64,000 nucleotides of DNA from Pseudomonadota bacterium. GTDB taxonomy: Bacteria > Pseudomonadota > Gammaproteobacteria > Pseudomonadales > JADFDG01. The stretch's first letter is position 1, and each line of letters starts with the position of its first letter. Below are positions 3,980 through 13,000 of the stretch, piece by piece. The notes under the pieces were generated by a model. That model was not told the origin of the DNA. It was given only the letters and a program-made list of their open reading frames with translations, and searched no databases. The translations under genes were made by a program, and so were the position numbers. The stretch covers positions 6,986 through 70,985 of the forward strand of contig JBMOOO010000014.1 in assembly GCA_049324475.1 (NCBI GenBank). The letters are read 5' to 3'.

Positions 3980-4861
3980 ATGGCCACCGCCCCGCACGTT
4001 TCCGGACCCGGCACCGCCGAACCGCATTCGGCCGTGACCGTTTCCGGCTACCGCGTTCCCGTCACCTGGTACGGTGCGCCGTCGCCGCACGCGACCCTGC
4101 TGCTGATGGCCGCGCTGGGGGTGGCCGCCCGTTTCTATGCACCGCTGGCCCAGGCCCTGTGCGACGCCGGCCTCAACGTGGCGCTGGTGGAGCAACGCGG
4201 TCACGGCGACAGCGCACTGCGGCCATCACGCGGCACCGATTTCGGATTCCGCGAGGCACTGGTCGAGGACATTCCCGCCGTGATGGATTTCGCCGCTGCA
4301 CGCGCGCCCGGCCTGCCGCTGTACCTGATGGGCCACAGTCTCGGCGGCCACTATTCCGCGATCACCGCCGGCCGTCTGCCGGAGCGCGTGGCCGGTGTGG
4401 TGCTCGCGGCCTGCGGCAGTCCGTGGACGGAAGCCTTTCCGGCGAAAACGCGCCGGCAGATACAGCTGCTGCTGACACTGATTCCGCTCACCGGCTTCCT
4501 GCTCGGCTATTACCCGGGCAACCGCATCGGCTTCGGCGGGCGTGAAGCGCGCACGCTGATGAGGGACTGGGCCACCGCGGCAAAAACCAACGCCTACCGC
4601 GCCACCGGCCTGGACGAGGATCTGGATGCGCAGATCGCGCGCTACGCCGGCCGCGTGCTGTCGCTGCGCATGGCCGACGACGACTTCGCGCCGGAAGCGG
4701 CCATGGCCGCGGTCACCGGCAAGTTCCGCTCGGCGCGGGTAACGAAACAGGTGCTCACCGAAGCCGACATCGGCGACCGCGCCGATCACTTCCGCTGGGC
4801 GCGCACGCCGCAGGCCACGGCGCACGCCGTGGCCGCGTGGACCCGCCGCGCGCCGGACTGA
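3980..4861 (+). CDS. alpha/beta-fold hydrolase
   Basis: In-frame ATG at 3980 inside the artefactually long track ORF 2831-4861. It has the nucleophile elbow LMGHSLGG and HGDS after strand 3. Only the C-terminal 293 codons have protein-like composition. Confidence 0.7.
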   Translation: MATAPHVSGPGTAEPHSAVTVSGYRVPVTWYGAPSPHATLLLMAALGVAARFYAPLAQALCDAGLNVALVEQRGHGDSALRPSRGTDFGFREALVEDIPAVMDFAAARAPGLPLYLMGHSLGGHYSAITAGRLPERVAGVVLAACGSPWTEAFPAKTRRQIQLLLTLIPLTGFLLGYYPGNRIGFGGREARTLMRDWATAAKTNAYRATGLDEDLDAQIARYAGRVLSLRMADDDFAPEAAMAAVTGKFRSARVTKQVLTEADIGDRADHFRWARTPQATAHAVAAWTRRAPD

Positions 4862-5177
4862 CGGTTCGCCGGACTGGCCGGCTGCTGACGCACACCGGGG
4901 CGCGATCCGGTGCCGGCGCCGGTTGGTGCTGCCCCGGGCCGGGCCGGATCTGGCACCATGGCGCCCGTCACTGGCCCCTCATCCGGAGGGGGCACGATGC
5001 CGGGCTGCCGGGCGGGCCGATTGTTACATCTGGTCCGTACGCCCCGGCCACGCCGCCACAGGCCTTGGGTAAACTTGCCGGCCACACCGACACGGGCATG
5101 TTCCCGGCCGGATGGCGGCCGGTTCGCCGCCGGATCACCGCCCGTAACCGCAAACCTGCAAGAGCCTCCCCGATACG

Positions 5178-7700
5178 ATGAAACGCTGGCTGGGCCTCGA
5201 CAGTTTCCTGCTGTTCTTCCTGCGCAAACTGCTGTTCATCTGGGTGCGCACCCACCGTCTGCCACAGGATTTCTCCACCCTGGGCATCGACCCGAAGCGC
5301 CCCGTCGTCTACGCCCTGCAGGACAAGTCGCTGTCGAACCTGCTGGTGGTCGAACACGAATGCCTGAAGCTGGGCCTGCCCCAGCCCTCGCGCACCAGCG
5401 GCATCCGCGGCACGGGCGCCGACCGCGCCTTTTTCTGCCTCACCCGCAACGACGGCCTGTTCTTCGGCCGCTACCGGCTGCCCTACATTTCCCAGCGCAT
5501 CGAACACCTGGTCGCCGCGGTGGAACGCGACAGCACGCTGGACGTGCAGATCGTGCCGGTGTCGGTTTACTGGGGCCGGCGTCCGGATCGCGAGAAATCA
5601 CTGATCCGCATCCTGCTCTCCGACACCTGGTCGGCGTCGGGCATGATCAAGAAAATGTTCATGATCCTGATCAACGGCCGCCAGACCTACATACAGTTCA
5701 GCAAACCGGTGTCGCTGCGCGAACTGGTGGCCGAGCAACTGGGCGAGGAACGCACGTCGCGCAAGCTGGGCCGGGTGCTGCGCGTGCACTTCCGCCGCGA
5801 ACGGGAAGCGATGATCGGCCCGGACCTGTCGCACCGCCGCACGCTGCTGGATGCACTGATCGCCGCACCGGCGGTCAAGGAAGCGATCCAGCAGGACGCG
5901 CGCGAGAAGGACATCACGGTCGAGGAAAGCACCGAGAAAGCCTGGGAGTACGCCAACGAGATCGCCTCCGACTACAGCCACACGGTGATCCGCTTCCTGG
6001 AAGTGGTGCTCACCTGGCTGTGGGAGCGGCTGTATGCCGGCGTCGAGGTCGGCCATGTCGGGCACCTGACCGACGTGGCGAAATCGCACGAGATCGTCTA
6101 CGTGCCCTGCCACCGCTCGCACATCGACTACCTGCTGCTCTCCTACATCATCTACAAGCACGGCATGGTGCCGCCGCACATTGCCGCCGGCATCAACCTG
6201 AACATGCCGGTGGTGGGCCCCATCCTGCGCCGTGGCGGTGCCTTCTTCATGCGCCGCAGCTTCAAGGGCAACCCGCTGTACTCGGCCGTGTTCTACGAAT
6301 ACCTGCACTCGATGTTCGCCCGCGGTTTCGCCGTGGAGTACTTCATCGAGGGCGGCCGCTCGCGCACCGGCCGGCTGCTGCAGCCACGTGCCGGCATGCT
6401 GGCCATGACCGTACGCAGCTTCCTGCGCGACACCAGCAAGCCGATCGCCTTCGTGCCGGTGTACATCGGCTACGAACGCATCCTGGAAAGCGGCTCCTAT
6501 GTGGAAGAGCTGCACGGCAAGCAGAAAAAGAAAGAGTCGCTGGGCGGTTTCTTCGAGACCGTCGCCCGCCTGTTCGGCCGTGCCGAGAAGCTGTCCGACC
6601 GCTTCGGCAAGGTGCACGTCAACTTCGGTGACCCGATCGATCTCGGGCCCTTCCTCGACACTTACGCGCCGGAGTGGCGCGAGGGCGGTTTCAGCGAGGA
6701 AGCCACCGCCTCCTGGCTGCCGCCGGTGGTGGAGAAGCTCGCGCGCACGGTCAACCGCCGCATCAACGACGCCGCCGACGTCAATCCGGTGAACCTGCTG
6801 AGCCTGGCGCTGCTGGCCACGCCCAAGCGGGTGATGGACGAGGATTCGCTGCGTACCCAGCTGGCGCTGTACCAGAAGCTGCTGGCCGATCTGCAGTACG
6901 GGCCGAACATCACCGTGACCGCCATGACGCCGGACGAGATGATCGCGCACGGCGAGAAGATGAAGATCCTGCAGCGCTACCGGCAGCCGCTGGGCGACCT
7001 GCTGTGGCTGGACGACGCCGCCTCGGTGACACTGACCTACTTCCGCAACAACGTGCTGCACCTGTTTGCCCTGCCGTCGCTGGTGGCCAACCTGCTGCTG
7101 CGCAACCGCACACTCAGCCGCGAACAGCTGGTTTCCATGGTCCGGCTGATCAACATCCCGCTGCGCGCGGAGCTGTTCCTGCAGCACGGGCCCCGCTCCG
7201 TGGTGCCCTACATCGACGCCGTGATCGCCGCCATGGAAAAGGCGGGTTTCATCGAGCACACCGAGGACGGGCGCCTGCAGGCACCGGTCACCGACACGCT
7301 GGAACACGCACAGATGAACGTGCTGGCCCAGACCATCCGGGAGACGCTGGAGCGCTACTACATCGTCATCTCGCTGGTGATGACCCATGCCGGCAACATC
7401 GACGAGGAACAGCTGGAGAAACTGTCGCAGCTGGTGGCCCAGCGCATGGCCATCCTCTACACCTTCAACTCGCCGGAGTTCTTCGATGCGCAGGTGATCA
7501 AGCGTTTCATCCGCACCATGAAGCGCGAGCAGCTGTTCGTCACCAATGCCGACGGCCGCATCGAATTCAGCGAGCCGCTGCGGCAGATCGAGGCCGACAC
7601 CCGCCGCATCCTGTCGGCGGAGATCCGCCGCAACATCGCCCAGCACACGAAAGTGGACCCGGCCGCACTGCCGGCCCCGGAAAAGAAAAAACGCAAGTAA
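5178..7700 (+). CDS. plsB: glycerol-3-phosphate 1-O-acyltransferase
   Basis: 840 aa, the size of PlsB. It has the HX4D acyltransferase motif VPCHRSHIDYLLLSY, plus FFMRRSF, VEYFIEGGRSRTGRLL and VPVYIGYE. Confidence 0.93.
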   Translation: MKRWLGLDSFLLFFLRKLLFIWVRTHRLPQDFSTLGIDPKRPVVYALQDKSLSNLLVVEHECLKLGLPQPSRTSGIRGTGADRAFFCLTRNDGLFFGRYRLPYISQRIEHLVAAVERDSTLDVQIVPVSVYWGRRPDREKSLIRILLSDTWSASGMIKKMFMILINGRQTYIQFSKPVSLRELVAEQLGEERTSRKLGRVLRVHFRREREAMIGPDLSHRRTLLDALIAAPAVKEAIQQDAREKDITVEESTEKAWEYANEIASDYSHTVIRFLEVVLTWLWERLYAGVEVGHVGHLTDVAKSHEIVYVPCHRSHIDYLLLSYIIYKHGMVPPHIAAGINLNMPVVGPILRRGGAFFMRRSFKGNPLYSAVFYEYLHSMFARGFAVEYFIEGGRSRTGRLLQPRAGMLAMTVRSFLRDTSKPIAFVPVYIGYERILESGSYVEELHGKQKKKESLGGFFETVARLFGRAEKLSDRFGKVHVNFGDPIDLGPFLDTYAPEWREGGFSEEATASWLPPVVEKLARTVNRRINDAADVNPVNLLSLALLATPKRVMDEDSLRTQLALYQKLLADLQYGPNITVTAMTPDEMIAHGEKMKILQRYRQPLGDLLWLDDAASVTLTYFRNNVLHLFALPSLVANLLLRNRTLSREQLVSMVRLINIPLRAELFLQHGPRSVVPYIDAVIAAMEKAGFIEHTEDGRLQAPVTDTLEHAQMNVLAQTIRETLERYYIVISLVMTHAGNIDEEQLEKLSQLVAQRMAILYTFNSPEFFDAQVIKRFIRTMKREQLFVTNADGRIEFSEPLRQIEADTRRILSAEIRRNIAQHTKVDPAALPAPEKKKRK

Positions 7701-7722
7701 GACCGACCTCCAGGAAGCCCCC

Positions 7723-8133
7723 ATGCGCACCGACGCCGAACGACTCAACCCGGAAATCGCCGCCCATGTGGCGGCCAACCGCTGGCTGTACTCGGCCGTG
7801 ATCTACTTCGTGATCGCGGTCGGGCTCGGCGTGTTCATGGGTGCCAGCCACGACCACCGCCTGGCGGGCGTGCATGTGCACCTGAACCTGCTGGGCTGGG
7901 TATCCATGGCGCTGACCGGTTTCCTGTACCGCGCCTGGCCGCGTGCGGCGGTATCCCGGCTGGCACGCGTGCACTTCTGGCTGTACAGCCTGGCACTGCC
8001 GCCGATGATGGTGGCGCTGGGCCTGTACCTCACCGGCACCGCCGCGGCCGAACCGGTGCTGGGCATCTGCTCGGTGCTGGTGTTTGTCGCCGTGCTGCTG
8101 TTCGCGATCAACGTCGCCCGCCACTCCCGCTGA
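7723..8133 (+). CDS. small 4-TM membrane protein with conserved His cluster (paralog A)
   Basis: In-frame ATG at 7723, 22 nt after the plsB stop. There are four hydrophobic helices. The motif LGVFMGASHDHRLAGVHVHLNLLGWVS is shared almost verbatim with the protein at 9002-9436. Confidence 0.7.
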   Translation: MRTDAERLNPEIAAHVAANRWLYSAVIYFVIAVGLGVFMGASHDHRLAGVHVHLNLLGWVSMALTGFLYRAWPRAAVSRLARVHFWLYSLALPPMMVALGLYLTGTAAAEPVLGICSVLVFVAVLLFAINVARHSR

Positions 8134-8252
8134 AAACCGCACCTTAGGGAACATTTAGGGTTTCCTTAGCGGACTTTTGGCAACGCCCCGGCCGCACACC
8201 GGCCAGCATCTCCGGCATCCCGCTGCACCGCGGCGGAATTGCCGGAGTTGCC

Positions 8253-8960
8253 ATGTCCGCCCCGCTGCAGCGCGTCGATCTCTACACCCTGGTCCACAAG
8301 GGGCTGCGCGCCCGCCTCTGCAACCTGCTGGTGGCCGCCGGCCGCCTCGACCACAGCAGTGACGCCGCCGTGGCCCTGCTGCTGGCCGACCTGCGGGAAA
8401 CGCTCGCCCTGCTCGCCCGCCACGCCGGACTGGAAGACCGGCACGTGCACACCGCCATGGAACGGCGACGCCCCGGCACCCGCCATGCCTGCGCCCGGGA
8501 ACACGCCGTGCACCGGCGCGATCTCGAGGAACTGCTGACCCTGGCACTGCGTCTGGAACACCTGCCGGCACTGCGCCGGCAGGTGGCCGCCACGGAGCTC
8601 TACCAGGTGCTGGCCCGCACGGTTGCGCACCAGCTGGAACATCTGGCGCTGGAGGAAAGCGTCAACAACCGCGTGCTGTGGGACGCTTTCTCCGACGACG
8701 AGCTCCGCGCCATCGAACAGGCAATGGCCGCGGAACTGACACCGGACGAACACAGCATTTTTCTACGCACCCTGCTGCCGCATGTGACGCCGGCAGAACG
8801 CACCCGGCTGCTGTCCGGCATGCGGACCGGCATGCCCGCGGAGGCCTTCGCCGGCGTGCTGACGCTCGCGGCCCGCCTGCTGCCCGGCGACGACATGCGC
8901 AACCTCGAATCCGCGCTCGGCATCGAGCGCAGACCGGCCGACTACGTCGGCCTCGCCTGA
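8253..8960 (+). CDS. hemerythrin-like (HHE cation-binding) domain protein
   Basis: 235 aa with high GC3. The His/Glu spacing is typical of hemerythrin-like four-helix bundles: LVHKGLRARL, HAGLEDRHVHTAME, REHAVHRRDLEEL and HQLEHLALEE. Confidence 0.65.
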   Translation: MSAPLQRVDLYTLVHKGLRARLCNLLVAAGRLDHSSDAAVALLLADLRETLALLARHAGLEDRHVHTAMERRRPGTRHACAREHAVHRRDLEELLTLALRLEHLPALRRQVAATELYQVLARTVAHQLEHLALEESVNNRVLWDAFSDDELRAIEQAMAAELTPDEHSIFLRTLLPHVTPAERTRLLSGMRTGMPAEAFAGVLTLAARLLPGDDMRNLESALGIERRPADYVGLA

Positions 8961-9001
8961 CGCGAACGCAAACCCTGTCCACCTTTCCGGGAGAAAACAC
9001 C

Positions 9002-9436
9002 ATGCAGAACGTACTCGCCGCCGGCACGATGCCGGCCCAGCACGACACCGCCCAGACCAGTGCACGCGCCGCCACACGGCGCTGGCTGAAGGTCTCCATC
9101 CTCTGGTTCGTGCTCGCCGTCAGCCTCGGCGTGTTCATGGGCGCCAGTCACGATCACCGGTTGATGGGCGTGCACGTGCACATCAACATGCTGGGCTGGG
9201 TGTCGCCGGCGCTGTTCGCCTTCGCGTACCAGTTCTTCCCCGCAGCCGCCACCACCCGGCTGGCCGGCGTGCAGTTCTGGCTGCACAACATCACGCTGCC
9301 GGTGATGATGGTCGCGCTCGCGTTCGTGCTGCTCGGGCACGAGGCGGAAGCCGGCCCGGTGCTGGGCATGACGTCGATGCTGATGTGGGCCAGCGTGCTG
9401 ATGTTCGCCTTCAACGTGCTGCGCCAGCGCGACTGA
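9002..9436 (+). CDS. small 4-TM membrane protein with conserved His cluster (paralog B)
   Basis: In-frame ATG at 9002 preceded by GGAGA. There are four TM helices. The motif LGVFMGASHDHRLMGVHVHINMLGWVS and later blocks (RLAGVQFWL, LPVMMVALA, PVLG, FAFNV) align with 7723-8133. Confidence 0.7.
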   Translation: MQNVLAAGTMPAQHDTAQTSARAATRRWLKVSILWFVLAVSLGVFMGASHDHRLMGVHVHINMLGWVSPALFAFAYQFFPAAATTRLAGVQFWLHNITLPVMMVALAFVLLGHEAEAGPVLGMTSMLMWASVLMFAFNVLRQRD

Positions 9437-9442
9437 GCCGGC

Positions 9443-10783
9443 TCAGCGGGCGTCGGCGTCCTGCAGCAGCAGGGGCCGGCGCACCGCCAGCCGGAACCGG
9501 CCACGGCCGGTCTTCTCGATACCCAGCGCGCTGTCGCGCTCGGCCAGCCGCTTCTGCAGCAGGATCAGCCGCGCCTCGAGGTTGTCGTCGACGTCCGGCA
9601 GCCGCAGGGAACGGTCCAGGCGCAGCTCGCGGTTGCTGAATTCGGTGCGCTGTTCCTGCACGTACAGGTTCAGCAGACGCCACAGGATGGCGCCGGCCAC
9701 GCCCTTGATCAGGTAATCCTCGCCGAGGAACACGCTGTCGTTCTGCGCGTAGTGCCGCACCACCAGCGGTGCACCGCTGACCGCCGGCTTCACCGCACCC
9801 GGACGCACGTCGTCGTCCTGGTCGGCGGCATGCTGCAACGCCAGCGCCGCCTCGCCGAGCAGCGCGGCGATCGCCACCAGGGCGTCCTCGTCTTCCCAGC
9901 TGAAACGCTGCGGCTCCGGGCTTTCCACATGCAGCACGCCCAGCAACCGGTTGGCAGCCACGATGGGCACCGCCAGCTGGCTGTGCGGTTCCGGCAGGCC
10001 GGGGAACGGGATCGCGGTTTCCAGCAGGTCATCCATGCCGGCGCCGGCGATGTGCTCGCGGATGGCGCGGCCGTAGGCATATTCGGTGGTCATGTGCGCG
10101 ATGCGGATCGGCGTGCGGTGCTGTGCCGCCACACCGATCACGCCACGGCCGAGCGGAAATTCCGAACCCACGCCCGACTGTGGATAGCCGCGGCTGGCCA
10201 CGGTGTAGAGCCGCCCGGCATCGGCATACAGCACCATGGCGTGACCGATGCCGAGTTCGGCTTCCAGGCCGGACAGCGTGCGCTCCAGCAGCGTGGCCAG
10301 GTCGGTGCTGCCGACGATGCGCGGCACCAGCGCACGCACGGCCGTCATGCGGCTGCGCTGCGTCACCGGTTTCGGCGCCGCTTCCACGCCCGGCACGTGC
10401 TCGACGTCCAGGACCTGGTAGACATCGGAGCCCTGCAGGCGGAACACACCGCTCATGCCGGTGTGCGAGGCGATCGCCGCCAGCTTGGCCTTCATGGTCT
10501 CGAACAGCGCGCCTTCCCCTTCCGTGCGCCGGTACAGCAGCGCCAGCCGGTAGCGGGCCGAGGTTTCCGGATGGATCAGGAACAGGGTGGCCTGCGGGTT
10601 GGCCAGGATGTTCTCGCGCGTCTTGTTGAAGAACTGGAAGGTGAGCGCAACATGGCCGGGATCGACATAGTGCACCTGCGACACATAGGTGACATTGGGC
10701 ACACCGTCGGTGTCGCAGGTGGCCAGCATGGAAGGTACCGCACCTTCGAAGCAGGGCCGGATCGCGTCCAGGCACACTTTCAT
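9443..10783 (-). CDS. PNPOx-like split-barrel + GAF + C-terminal winged-helix-like domain protein (putative one-component regulator)
   Basis: Internal ATG at 10783 (MKVCLDAIRPCFEG) of track ORF 9443-11284, overlapping the upstream gene's stop by 4 nt. The N-terminus is PNPOx-like (VPNVTYVSQVHYVD...FFNKTRENILANPQATLFL). The middle is GAF-like (GHAMVLYAD...GVIGVAAQHRTPIRIAH...LAVPIVAANRLLGVLHVES). The C-terminus (KGVAGAILWRLL...RTEFSNRELRLD...NLEARLILLQKRLAE...IEKTGRGRFRL) resembles OmpR/PhoB-type DNA-binding domains. Confidence 0.65.
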   Translation of the reverse strand: MKVCLDAIRPCFEGAVPSMLATCDTDGVPNVTYVSQVHYVDPGHVALTFQFFNKTRENILANPQATLFLIHPETSARYRLALLYRRTEGEGALFETMKAKLAAIASHTGMSGVFRLQGSDVYQVLDVEHVPGVEAAPKPVTQRSRMTAVRALVPRIVGSTDLATLLERTLSGLEAELGIGHAMVLYADAGRLYTVASRGYPQSGVGSEFPLGRGVIGVAAQHRTPIRIAHMTTEYAYGRAIREHIAGAGMDDLLETAIPFPGLPEPHSQLAVPIVAANRLLGVLHVESPEPQRFSWEDEDALVAIAALLGEAALALQHAADQDDDVRPGAVKPAVSGAPLVVRHYAQNDSVFLGEDYLIKGVAGAILWRLLNLYVQEQRTEFSNRELRLDRSLRLPDVDDNLEARLILLQKRLAERDSALGIEKTGRGRFRLAVRRPLLLQDADAR

Positions 10784-11271
10784 GACGTGCCTCCGATGCG
10801 CGCGCCGGCACCGGGCCCCGGCGTCTGCGCATACACGGCCTCGACCGTGAAAGTGACCGCCACGCACTGCGCGGACGGCGCCACGCCGTGCAGCGCCAGC
10901 GCGAACTCGCGGGCATAGCCCAGCGGGATGATGTCGGCAGCAAAGGCCTGCGCGTGCTGTTCGATCAGTGCGGAATCGGTCGGCTGCAGCGCACCGGTGC
11001 GCGCGTCGCTGCCCTTGATCTGCAGCGTACGGTGCGTGCTGGGCAGGGAAAACACCGCCGCCACCTGACGCGTGGCGGCGATGTCGTTGAGCAGCTGGCG
11101 GGCGCCCTCGGCTTCCAGCAACAGGGTGACTTCGCGGCGATCGGCGGAGACACGGCAGCCGACCGCCTTCATCACCGACGGCACACGGCGGGCGTCGCGC
11201 GAAGACACCGTGATGGACACAGGGCCGCCGAGAAATCCGGCCTGTTCGGCAGTCAGCGGGCTGGCAGTCAT
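10780..11271 (-). CDS. pyridoxamine 5'-phosphate oxidase-like (split beta-barrel flavin/heme-binding family) protein
   Basis: In-frame ATG at 11271 (MTASPLTAEQAGFLGGPVSITVSS). It has a 4-nt ATGA-type overlap with the downstream gene. The pattern of short beta-strands is typical of the PNPOx-like family. Confidence 0.55.
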   Translation of the reverse strand: MTASPLTAEQAGFLGGPVSITVSSRDARRVPSVMKAVGCRVSADRREVTLLLEAEGARQLLNDIAATRQVAAVFSLPSTHRTLQIKGSDARTGALQPTDSALIEQHAQAFAADIIPLGYAREFALALHGVAPSAQCVAVTFTVEAVYAQTPGPGAGARIGGTS

Positions 11272-11346
11272 GCGCGGGCGGCATCCGGACCGGTGCAGGA
11301 AGCGCCTATCCTGCCGCAGGCCACCGCCCGCGGCCAACCGGAACCG

Positions 11347-12918
11347 TCAGACCGGCGGCGGCGCCGGCAGGGTGCCGGGCTGCGCGGCCGGGCGGCGACC
11401 GCCACGCAGATAGATGCCGGACGGCACCGGCGGCCAGATCTCGCTCAGCAGCACCGAACGCGGGCCGCCGGTGACCATGCGCGCATGATGCCGGCGCAGC
11501 TCGCGCGGCTCCGACACACCGCAGGAATGCGCGATCACTTCCACCTCGTGCACGAGATGGCGGTGGAACTGGTAGACCCGTTCGGCCTTTTCCATCGGCA
11601 CCAGTCCGCGCTGCAGGCGTGGATCGTGGGTGGTGATACCGGTGGGGCAGGTGTTCTTGTCGCACTGCATGGCCTGGATGCAGCCCAGCGCGAACATGTA
11701 ACCGCGTGCCGACACGCAGAAATCCGCACCCAGTGTCAGCGCCCAGGCGACCATGTTGGGCGTGATCAGCTTGCCGGCGGCCACCACCCGAACCCGTTCG
11801 CGCAGGCCGTAGCCGCTCAGCAGGTCCACCATCATGGGCAGCGATTCGGCCAGATGCAGGCCGACATCGTCCATCAGCGCCATGGGCGCGGCGCCGGTAC
11901 CGCCGTCGCCACTGTCGATGGAAATGTAATCCGGCGCCGACTCGATGCCGCGGCGATGGATTTCCAGGAAGAAATCGTCCAGCCAGTCGGAAGCGCCGAT
12001 CACCAGCTTGATGCCCACCGGCTTGCCGGTAACCTCGCGCACGCGGGCGATGGCGTCGAGCAGCTCGCCGCTGCTGGCGATGTCCGGATGCCGGTTCGGA
12101 CTGATCGAGGGTTCGCCCGCCGGGATGCCGCGCACGGCGGCGATTTCCGGCGTCACCTTGCCGCCGGGCAGGATGCCGCCCTTGCCCGGCTTGGCGCCCT
12201 GGCTGAGCTTGATCTCGAACATCTTCACCTGCGGATGCGCCGCCACCTCGCGCAGTTTTTCGTCGCTGAGGTTGCCCTGCGCGTCGCGCACGCCGTAGCG
12301 TGCAGTGCCGATCTGGAACACGATGTCGGCGCCGCCTTCCAGATGCCAGGGCGACAGACCGCCCTCGCCGGTGTTCATCCAGCAGCCCGCCTTCGCCGCG
12401 CCCTTCGACAGGGCCAGCACCGCCGGTTTCGACAGCGCGCCGAAACTCATGCCGGAAATGTTGTGCAGCGACTTCGCCAGATAGGGCTGGCGTGCATGCG
12501 GCCCGATCAGCATCGGCTGCGTTTCCGCCTTGCTGGTGTCCAGCGTCGGGTACGGCGCGTTGAGGAAGATCACCCGGCCCGGCGCCAGCATGCTCTTGGT
12601 GGAGCCGAACGGCACCAGCGTGGAGAGATCCTTCGCCGCGCGGTACACCCATGCACGTTGTGCACGATTGAACGGCAGCTCTTCGCGGTCCATCGCAAAG
12701 AAATACTGGCGGAAGAATTCGCCCATCCGCTCGAAGAAATAGCGGAAGCGGCCCAGCAGCGGATAGTTGCGGCGCACCGTGTGCGCCGTCTGGAAGAAAC
12801 GGTCGTACACCCACATGGCGGCCAGCACGAGCACCAGTACCAGCAGGGCTGCGACCAGCGCCAGCAGGGCGACGTCGACCAGCGTTTCCAGCCACCTGTG
12901 CACCTGCGGTGACAGCAT
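11347..12918 (-). CDS. membrane-anchored FMN-binding glutamate synthase-family protein (GltB domain-2-like)
   Basis: Start taken at MLSPQVH (12918). An N-terminal TM helix (LVDVALLALVAALLVLVLVLAAMWV) is followed by glutamate-synthase central-domain motifs: ISGMSFGALS, NTGEGGLSP, KLSQGAKPGKGGILPG, DSGDGGTGAAP and GADFCVSARGYMFALGC. Confidence 0.8.
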   Translation of the reverse strand: MLSPQVHRWLETLVDVALLALVAALLVLVLVLAAMWVYDRFFQTAHTVRRNYPLLGRFRYFFERMGEFFRQYFFAMDREELPFNRAQRAWVYRAAKDLSTLVPFGSTKSMLAPGRVIFLNAPYPTLDTSKAETQPMLIGPHARQPYLAKSLHNISGMSFGALSKPAVLALSKGAAKAGCWMNTGEGGLSPWHLEGGADIVFQIGTARYGVRDAQGNLSDEKLREVAAHPQVKMFEIKLSQGAKPGKGGILPGGKVTPEIAAVRGIPAGEPSISPNRHPDIASSGELLDAIARVREVTGKPVGIKLVIGASDWLDDFFLEIHRRGIESAPDYISIDSGDGGTGAAPMALMDDVGLHLAESLPMMVDLLSGYGLRERVRVVAAGKLITPNMVAWALTLGADFCVSARGYMFALGCIQAMQCDKNTCPTGITTHDPRLQRGLVPMEKAERVYQFHRHLVHEVEVIAHSCGVSEPRELRRHHARMVTGGPRSVLLSEIWPPVPSGIYLRGGRRPAAQPGTLPAPPPV

Positions 12919-13000
12919 GTTGCCTCCCTGCGCATGCCGCCCCGGAACCGGGGCCCTGCGCCGGAGCATACGTCAGGCCGGGCGGACCTGTGCAGCGCCA

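Follow-up and report, generated by a model that had tools for sequence, protein, structure and literature searches.

The stretch of DNA considered here (the window, 64,000 nucleotides of contig JBMOOO010000014.1 from assembly GCA_049324475.1, a member of the Pseudomonadales) carries, directly downstream of the phospholipid synthesis gene plsB, a gene for a hemerythrin-like (Hr-like) protein flanked by two paralogous genes for small proteins with four transmembrane helices (4-TM), here called A and B. A 42-bp motif separates A from the Hr gene, and from the other strand a gene pair for a protein with PNPOx_N and GAF domains and a 163-amino-acid (aa) partner converges on B (Table 1). This order of the genes, with A starting 22 nt past the plsB stop, had been described in an initial annotation of the DNA and agrees with the map of open reading frames (ORFs). 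By reading, a GGAG-like ribosome-binding site lies 7–9 nt 5' of A, the Hr gene and B alike. A scan of positions 7500–9700 returned no sigma-70-like promoter site and two terminator-like matches, no more than shuffled sequence gives, and an Rfam scan of 7600–9600 returned nothing credible.

Table 1. Coordinates of the genes and of the 42-bp motif in the window, and of the motif in loci of other genomes (L numbers)
Locus	Feature	Position	Strand	Description
Window	plsB (glycerol-3-phosphate acyltransferase)	5178-7700	+	NCBIfam PlsB equivalog, 1026 bits; outside the conserved module
Window	Paralog A	7723-8133	+	136 aa, four-helix; very probable single-unit homolog of heme-copper oxidase subunit I; upstream of the 42-bp motif
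Window	42-bp motif	8144-8185	+	Four TTAG(G)-like repeats at ~11 bp spacing; probable operator or activator site
Window	Hr-like gene	8253-8960	+	235 aa, predicted four-helix bundle with ~90-aa helical C-terminal extension
Window	Paralog B	9002-9436	+	144 aa; very probable single-unit oxidase homolog; putative operon with the Hr gene, 41-nt gap
Window	PNPOx-GAF gene	9443-10783	-	446 aa, converges on Hr-B; PNPOx_N split barrel, GAF and 117-aa C-terminal domain
Window	163-aa protein gene	10780-11271	-	No family match; 4-nt overlap of its stop with the PNPOx-GAF start
L081	42-bp motif	7897-7938
L088	42-bp motif	8542-8583
L088	42-bp motif	10409-10450
L089	42-bp motif	4598-4639
L090	42-bp motif	7913-7954

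The paralogous four-helix membrane proteins

Over 131 residues A and B share 55% identity (E 7e-48), their DNA copies are 74–81% identical, and the stretch LGVFMGASHDHRL(A/M)GVHVH(L/I)N(L/M)LGWVS is found in both, which bears out the initial annotation in calling them paralogs with a near-identical stretch. That annotation recognised no family for them, a statement that has to be given up in view of the relatives found by Pfam, by a profile match to the cbb3 oxidase subunit CcoN and by the fold of a ba3 oxidase. The Pfam scan gave a weak match to COX1 (PF00115; E 7e-4 for A, under threshold), and A and B each scored 17.5 bits (E 5e-3) with DUF2871 (PF11070), the gathering threshold of which is 27.4 bits. 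Their relatives match both DUF2871 and COX1, some with precomputed PF11070 matches, and two relatives rescanned against DUF2871 reached 20.4–23.9 bits, also below threshold. By the Pfam definition A and B are a sister group of DUF2871 and not members of it, DUF2871 proteins being likewise membrane proteins of four helices and small size (about 130 aa). In the Evo paper, DUF2871 was found to co-occur with cytochrome c and FixP domains in SynGenome prompt-response pairs.

AlphaFold2 predicts A with confidence (predicted local distance difference test, pLDDT, 92.8) as a bundle of four helices, at residues 10–42, 48–71, 79–103 and 107–133. When the model was compared with the PDB by Foldseek, the top 16 matches were all Thermus ba3 oxidase subunit I (probability 0.95–1.0, query-normalised TM-score 0.53–0.65, E about 0.04). 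A direct sequence search of A against the PDB gave a chance match only, and the profile of the 4-TM family matched CcoN (3mk7_A) with an E value of 0.01. On this evidence A and B are in all probability single-unit homologs of heme-copper oxidase (HCO) subunit I, each corresponding to one four-helix unit of three. One third of subunit I of the COX1, CcoN and NorB type has the fold of A and B, and the topology agrees, with the heme side facing outward. In contrast to subunit I of canonical oxidases and nitric oxide (NO) reductases, which has 12 helices and six metal-ligand histidines, among them the binuclear-centre ligands of helices 6 and 7, A and B have four helices and two invariant histidines, lack the copper or iron ligands of the binuclear centre and have no CcoO/P or NorC nearby.

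The family is large and of uniform size. A word-indexed search yielded 166 relatives of 120–160 aa, mostly from beta- and gammaproteobacterial metagenome-assembled genomes (MAGs) and Bacillaceae, of the 600 pattern matches listed in a genome scan at least 594 were matching loci, and a profile search of 1.84 billion cluster representatives returned 1,905 matches at E <= 1e-3 with a consistent length of 120–160 aa. A and B are related to the single-unit "HCO homology" (HCOH) proteins that Pei, Li, Kinch and Grishin are said to have described (Protein Sci 2014;23:1220), with four helices that are most similar to helices 9–12 of oxidases and NO reductases. Reportedly these proteins keep the heme-ligand histidines and homo- or heterotrimers were proposed for them, from computation alone. 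To our knowledge, and as far as checked, that account contains no operon with this Hr-like subfamily, 42-bp motif, PNPOx-GAF/163-aa pair or two-paralog arrangement. The 4-TM family is described computationally and experimentally uncharacterised, and the regulatory module around it appears to be undescribed.

Across 108 aligned 4-TM sequences, H51 and H53 are invariant together with G36, M39, G58, W59 and F85, and H43 and H45 are present in 72 and 78 of the 108, respectively. The initial annotation had pointed to four histidines as a possible heme or metal site; such a site is plausible, but a four-histidine site is not a feature of the family because H43 and H45 vary and H51-x-H53 alone is invariant. 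In the alignment of the family profile with CcoN (3mk7_A), the H-x-H falls on H345 and H347, which serve in helix 10 as ligands to heme b3 and heme b. In weaker sub-alignments the first histidine falls on H60, a heme b ligand of helix 2 that shares this heme with H347, and the second on H207, a CuB ligand of helix 6. H51 and H53, being two residues apart in a helix, face different sides, an arrangement that fits the ligation of two different hemes as by oxidase helix X. Lysine and arginine cluster in the N terminus (mean 1.6), loop 2–3 (2.1) and the C terminus (2.2) as against loop 1–2 (0.8) and loop 3–4 (0.6), which implies an N-in/C-in topology with H51-x-H53 at the outer end of helix 2. This charge distribution places both termini of A and B in the cytoplasm, and the H-x-H on that side of the membrane where the oxidase hemes sit. 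No counterparts of the helix-7 copper ligands were found in the 4-TM proteins, so that a canonical O2 or NO reductase with a binuclear centre is unlikely, and we infer that the proteins more likely form a heme module for electron transfer or ligand sensing.

A bridge from the single-unit family to the oxidases is provided by three proteins from the cluster-representative search (P0138, 413 aa; P0153, 408 aa; P0265, 400 aa) that consist of three tandem 4-TM units with an H-x-H in each and pass the Pfam COX1 threshold, with 92–96 bits against 34.8 bits and three matched stretches each. As "Rosetta stone" fusions they argue that the working form of the 4-TM unit is a trimer. The three proteins look like symmetric 12-helix oxidases, with the six histidines placed differently from those of true oxidases. 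The A and B units would assemble as homotrimers or mixed A/B trimers and so rebuild an oxidase-like 12-helix core, in which, by symmetry with the oxidase, a b-type heme would sit at each of three interfaces, held by H51 of one unit and H53 of its neighbour. That the proteins form such a heme-binding trimer is moderately probable. Two unlinked copies of the 4-TM family or of DUF2871 were also seen within one genome in Staphylococcus epidermidis (F1613_RS03065 and RS02965) and in a Bacillaceae MAG (L041 and L066); mixed trimers are therefore possibly general and not specific to the window.

The hemerythrin-like protein and the conserved gene arrangement

The product of the middle gene scores 17.8 bits with the Pfam Hemerythrin family (PF01814), below the threshold of 25.3 bits, and none of the relatives seen reaches that threshold, their precomputed matches being weak or faint. 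Across its homologs H15, H57-x3-E61, H84 and H130-x3-E134 are invariant, a classical pattern of di-iron ligands. In the model, which is of high confidence (pLDDT 92.3), residues ~1–150 superpose on the hemerythrin-like domain of FBXL5 with a root-mean-square deviation of ~2 Å and a target-normalised TM-score of 0.82–0.85, and less well on DcrH-Hr. No signal peptide was found by reading. On its ligand set and modelled fold, the middle protein is a predicted cytoplasmic hemerythrin-like di-iron protein, as the initial annotation had supposed. It has the four-helix bundle and the H/HxxxE/H/HxxxE ligands in common with the FBXL5 domain, DcrH-Hr and the RIC/YtfE/ScdA proteins, and differs from this group in a C-terminal extension of ~90 aa in five short helices, which matches nothing, and in lacking a ScdA_N domain. 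An assignment to RIC/YtfE/ScdA was considered and rejected (NCBIfam YtfE 15.5 bits versus 254, DnrN 9.8 versus 300, no ScdA_N match).

Gene neighbourhoods were compared at 80 genome loci with the closest 4-TM homologs. The initial annotation had suggested a profile search and a count of co-occurrence with hemerythrin genes; the search did find a family, but the count gave an Hr-like gene in only four of the 80 loci (L001, L002, L004 and L011), each time directly upstream on the same strand. Two 4-TM copies within 6 kb occurred at none of the 80. Clustering and Pfam annotation of 149 flanking ORFs revealed neither a dominant partner nor any oxidase, cytochrome or NO gene; the neighbours varied (DUF445, HAD phosphatases, argS, enoyl-CoA hydratases), and oxidase, nitrogen-oxide or copper-handling genes were not enriched in this census.

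Within this diversity one four-gene arrangement recurs, in which an Hr gene followed by a 4-TM gene converges on a gene for a ~450-aa PNPOx_N-GAF protein that is itself preceded by a gene for a ~165-aa protein. It is present in the window and in L001, L002, L011, L081, L084, L086 and L087. The order of Hr and then 4-TM on one strand was seen in L001, L002, L004, L011, L081, L084, L087, L088, L091 and L093, and in module loci the two genes are separated by 41–43 nt or overlap. In the closest MAG (L081) the order is plsB, 4-TM, a GGDEF gene on the opposite strand, Hr, 4-TM, the converging PNPOx-GAF gene, a 169-aa gene and a gene with a Glu_synthase domain. Six further loci were sampled via the PNPOx-GAF protein alone: Pseudomonas benzenivorans (L088), Mangrovitalea sediminis (L089), a Chromatiales MAG (L090), P. 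taeanensis MS-3 (L091) and two metagenomic contigs (L092, L093). All six have the motif and the ~165-aa gene followed by the PNPOx-GAF gene, five have an Hr gene and three a 4-TM gene. A c-type cytochrome gene takes the place of Hr in the converging operon of L090, Hr occurs without a 4-TM gene in L089 and L092, and a 4-TM gene without Hr in L003, L029 and L053. In L003 the interval between motif and 4-TM gene holds ORFs of 306 and 134 aa that resemble the acetyltransferase and GFA genes of L088; in L029 and L053 it holds E1-type transketolase-like subunits.

Since the motif accompanies all 17 independent PNPOx-GAF loci examined and given the six-locus sampling, the stable core consists of the candidate sensor pair, the motif and mostly the Hr gene, and the 4-TM gene is a frequent cargo. 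Judged from gene order, the conserved unit is the motif and the Hr gene, often followed by a 4-TM gene, with the converging 163-aa/PNPOx-GAF pair, and some 17 independent loci have it, cultured Pseudomonas among them. A neighbour-joining tree unites most of the 4-TM genes that are linked to Hr or PNPOx-GAF in one clade and places A with both L081 copies. The 4-TM gene of L086 seems to be a short remnant (7557–7865, a called gene of 63 aa, family hidden Markov model E 1e-7) followed by a 266-aa gene without family, which suggests that the 4-TM component can be lost. The gene hemN (oxygen-independent coproporphyrinogen oxidase) adjoins or lies near the 163-aa/PNPOx-GAF pair in L087 (5087–6328) and L093 (1–27), which fits a heme or low-oxygen theme.

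Copy A and plsB are much less constant. A second 4-TM copy occurs in the window and L081 only, that is in two of about 17 module loci, and plsB adjoins the module in the window, L081 and L011 only, that is in three. The opposite-strand GGDEF gene between the A copy and Hr in L081 indicates that A is separable from the Hr-B pair, and as L011 has plsB, motif, Hr and 4-TM gene without an A copy, A is most readily understood as a derived duplicate. It is probably transcribed together with plsB, outside the control of the motif, and the regulated promoter should lie downstream of it; with the motif beginning 10 nt past the A stop and no predicted terminator, read-through from plsB-A into Hr-B is possible. 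The adjacency of plsB, a physical link that the initial annotation had remarked on, looks like clade-specific synteny. The neighbours of other module loci include a chemoreceptor, the acetyltransferase and GFA genes, the fatty-acid cis-trans isomerase CTI, a wax-ester synthase and HemN. Genes for CTI and the wax-ester synthase (WS_DGAT) flank the module in two loci (L084 10184–12562, L086 12794–14708, L084 818–4337), so that a lipid-metabolism neighbourhood recurs, with CTI/WS_DGAT in two loci and plsB in three others.

The upstream motif and the PNPOx-GAF pair, a candidate sensor

The motif of the window, TTAGGGAACATTTAGGGTTTCCTTAGCGGACTTTTGGCAACG, is AT-rich within otherwise GC-rich DNA and ends 67 nt before the Hr start codon. 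A position weight matrix built from nine aligned upstream regions of the Hr gene has a single match within the window. On nine further PNPOx-GAF loci outside the training set the matrix scored 27–54 bits, whereas shuffled 12-kb sequence reached 6.0 bits at the most; the nine comprise the six loci sampled via the PNPOx-GAF protein (35–54 bits) and the other three PNPOx-GAF loci among the 80, namely L003 (49 bits), L053 (36.7 bits) and L029 (26.9 bits). At each of the 17 loci the motif precedes the operon convergent with the PNPOx-GAF gene. It is present twice in P. benzenivorans, 5' of the acetyltransferase and GFA genes and again 5' of the Hr-4-TM pair. A weaker match (23.6 bits) lies just 5' of the 4-TM gene in L062, which has no PNPOx-GAF gene within 6 kb. 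The conservation and position of the motif make it a probable operator or activator site. Its TGGCA was also considered as a sigma-54 element, a reading dropped since this pentamer lacks conservation and inspection showed no -12 element.

In the PNPOx-GAF protein Pfam recognises PNPOx_N (37.7 bits) and GAF_2 (53.7 bits), and the PNPOx domain is weakly similar to the heme-binding protein HutZ (E 7e-3 in the PDB, 8e-4 in NCBIfam). The family comprises more than 7,310 clusters at 60–70% identity, from Pseudomonas, Burkholderiales and Moraxellaceae. Its members are often labelled "adenylate cyclase" at JGI; the scans found PNPOx_N and GAF domains only. The C-terminal 117 residues contain 38 invariant columns in 11 sequences and have no match in Pfam or the PDB. 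By eye this domain resembles the winged helix of OmpR/PhoB, which phased repeats would fit; the assignment is no more than a lead, as neither Pfam nor the PDB gave a match and the hhalign probability against PhoB and OmpR sequences was 0.2%. In every complete locus the 163-aa gene immediately precedes the PNPOx-GAF gene; in the window the 4-nt overlap couples the two translationally, and the product of the 163-aa gene ends in a conserved QTPGPxAG motif. An interpretation of this protein as a PNPOx-like barrel was set aside, as the hhalign alignment with the N-terminal domain of the PNPOx-GAF protein is in register and insignificant (probability 1.4%). The PNPOx-GAF protein may control the operon through the motif in response to a small molecule, for which heme, flavin or a redox signal come into question, and strict co-occurrence makes a regulatory link between protein and motif moderately probable.

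Weighing the explanations

Our preferred reading joins these elements. By comparison of loci, B is predicted to be co-operonic with the Hr-like gene downstream of the four-repeat motif, and the operon converges on the 163-aa/PNPOx-GAF pair; the locus would encode a heme-binding, HCO-like trimer co-regulated with a cytoplasmic di-iron protein and responding to O2, NO, redox state or heme/iron. As a whole this explanation is held to be slightly better than even; a physiological response to O2, NO, redox state or heme/iron status is, taken by itself, a tentative and rather doubtful part of it. Several points weigh against the preferred reading. The sequence links of A and B to COX1 and DUF2871 lie below curated thresholds, and for single-unit members heme binding, trimer formation and contact with the Hr-like protein are all inferred. 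In the wider family, as seen at the 80 loci, the 4-TM gene stands alone among varied housekeeping neighbours, and since few of these loci have an Hr neighbour, a functional tie to hemerythrin is limited to one clade. With the heme side predicted to be periplasmic and the Hr-like protein cytoplasmic, direct contact of the metal sites is not obvious. Furthermore, the C-terminal domain of the PNPOx-GAF protein is without a match among DNA-binding families, and an unlinked regulator could bind the motif.

The initial annotation had seen in A, the Hr-like protein and B a unit that might respond to O2, NO or iron. In its strong form, as one three-part complex with a four-histidine metal site that is tied to phospholipid synthesis via plsB, this is improbable. 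The three genes do share a strand, the gaps between them are short and hold no predicted terminator, L081 has the same gene order save for the inserted GGDEF gene, plsB is also adjacent in L011, and lipid-related neighbours (CTI, WS_DGAT and acyl-CoA dehydrogenase) occur in some other module loci. However, copy A is missing from 15 of the 17 module loci and the census found no paired copies, which speaks against the triad as the conserved unit; moreover, the regulatory motif sits between A and the Hr gene, an opposite-strand gene splits the two in L081, H43 and H45 vary, and plsB is adjacent in three, probably related, MAGs only. Equally improbable is that the 4-TM proteins handle a metal ion such as copper and not heme, as a metallochaperone or small transporter binding it through Met39 with H51 and H53 at the periplasmic face. 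Sites made of histidine and methionine are typical of Cu(I) proteins; none of M39, H51 and H53 varies, all three lie close to the outer face of the membrane, and in some members further ligands could come from the variable H-D-H loop. But H51 and H53 align exactly with the cbb3 heme ligands and face apart in the helix, a poor geometry for chelating one ion, and in the census copper-handling genes were not enriched.

A primitive oxidase or NO-handling enzyme made of the Hr-like protein and the 4-TM trimer, in which the former delivers O2 or processes NO, is unlikely too, by a shade less than the preceding two. Comparable systems are bacteriohemerythrin with particulate methane monooxygenase and the RIC/NorA proteins with NO reductase. 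Roles in denitrification or NO detoxification were reportedly proposed by Pei and colleagues in 2014 from genomic context, and the tight spacing of the Hr and 4-TM genes, the weak YtfE/DnrN similarity of the Hr-like protein and the HemN and cytochrome c genes in some module loci point the same way. Against it stand the lack of a CuB or FeB ligand set for a binuclear centre, the absence of nir, nor or nos genes from the module loci examined and the loci in which Hr or the 4-TM gene occurs without the other. That A and B might be decayed, functionless fragments of a cbb3-type oxidase subunit gene, as their resemblance to CcoN could suggest, has next to no probability and is ruled out by conservation: the 1,905 cluster representatives keep a consistent length, the motifs are invariant, the compact fold is predicted with confidence, and ribosome-binding sites are plausible and reading frames intact.

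A bolder extension of the heme-trimer reading would see in A and B, possibly as a mixed trimer, a symmetric three-heme oxidase core and a living analogue of the ancestor before triplication, forming with the di-iron Hr-like protein a simple redox device that handles O2 or NO and is switched on by a hitherto unrecognised one-component regulator (PNPOx split barrel, GAF and a novel DNA-binding domain) that binds the four phased repeats; as a whole this is improbable. For the origin of the 12-helix catalytic subunit of oxidases and NO reductases, single-unit homologs are the obvious pre-triplication models. The locus offers a defined and apparently regulated system with such a homolog, its two paralogs could test mixed trimers, and relatives in the cultured hosts P. 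benzenivorans and P. taeanensis, the former in region 3.900–3.914 Mb of CP073346, make genetics feasible. It also exposes a large unnamed module, with the PNPOx-GAF protein (>7,000 clusters), its 163-aa partner and a 42-bp putative operator.

Among the remaining features of the window, very long ORFs antisense to plsB and its neighbours within 4000–13000 (for example 5598–7778 on the minus strand, 726 aa) are of a kind typical for high-GC DNA and not genes. Directly after the 163-aa gene, at 11347–12969 on the minus strand, lies a gene for a 540-aa protein with a Glu_synthase domain (FMN-type) and a hydrophobic N terminus, as is likewise the case in L081.

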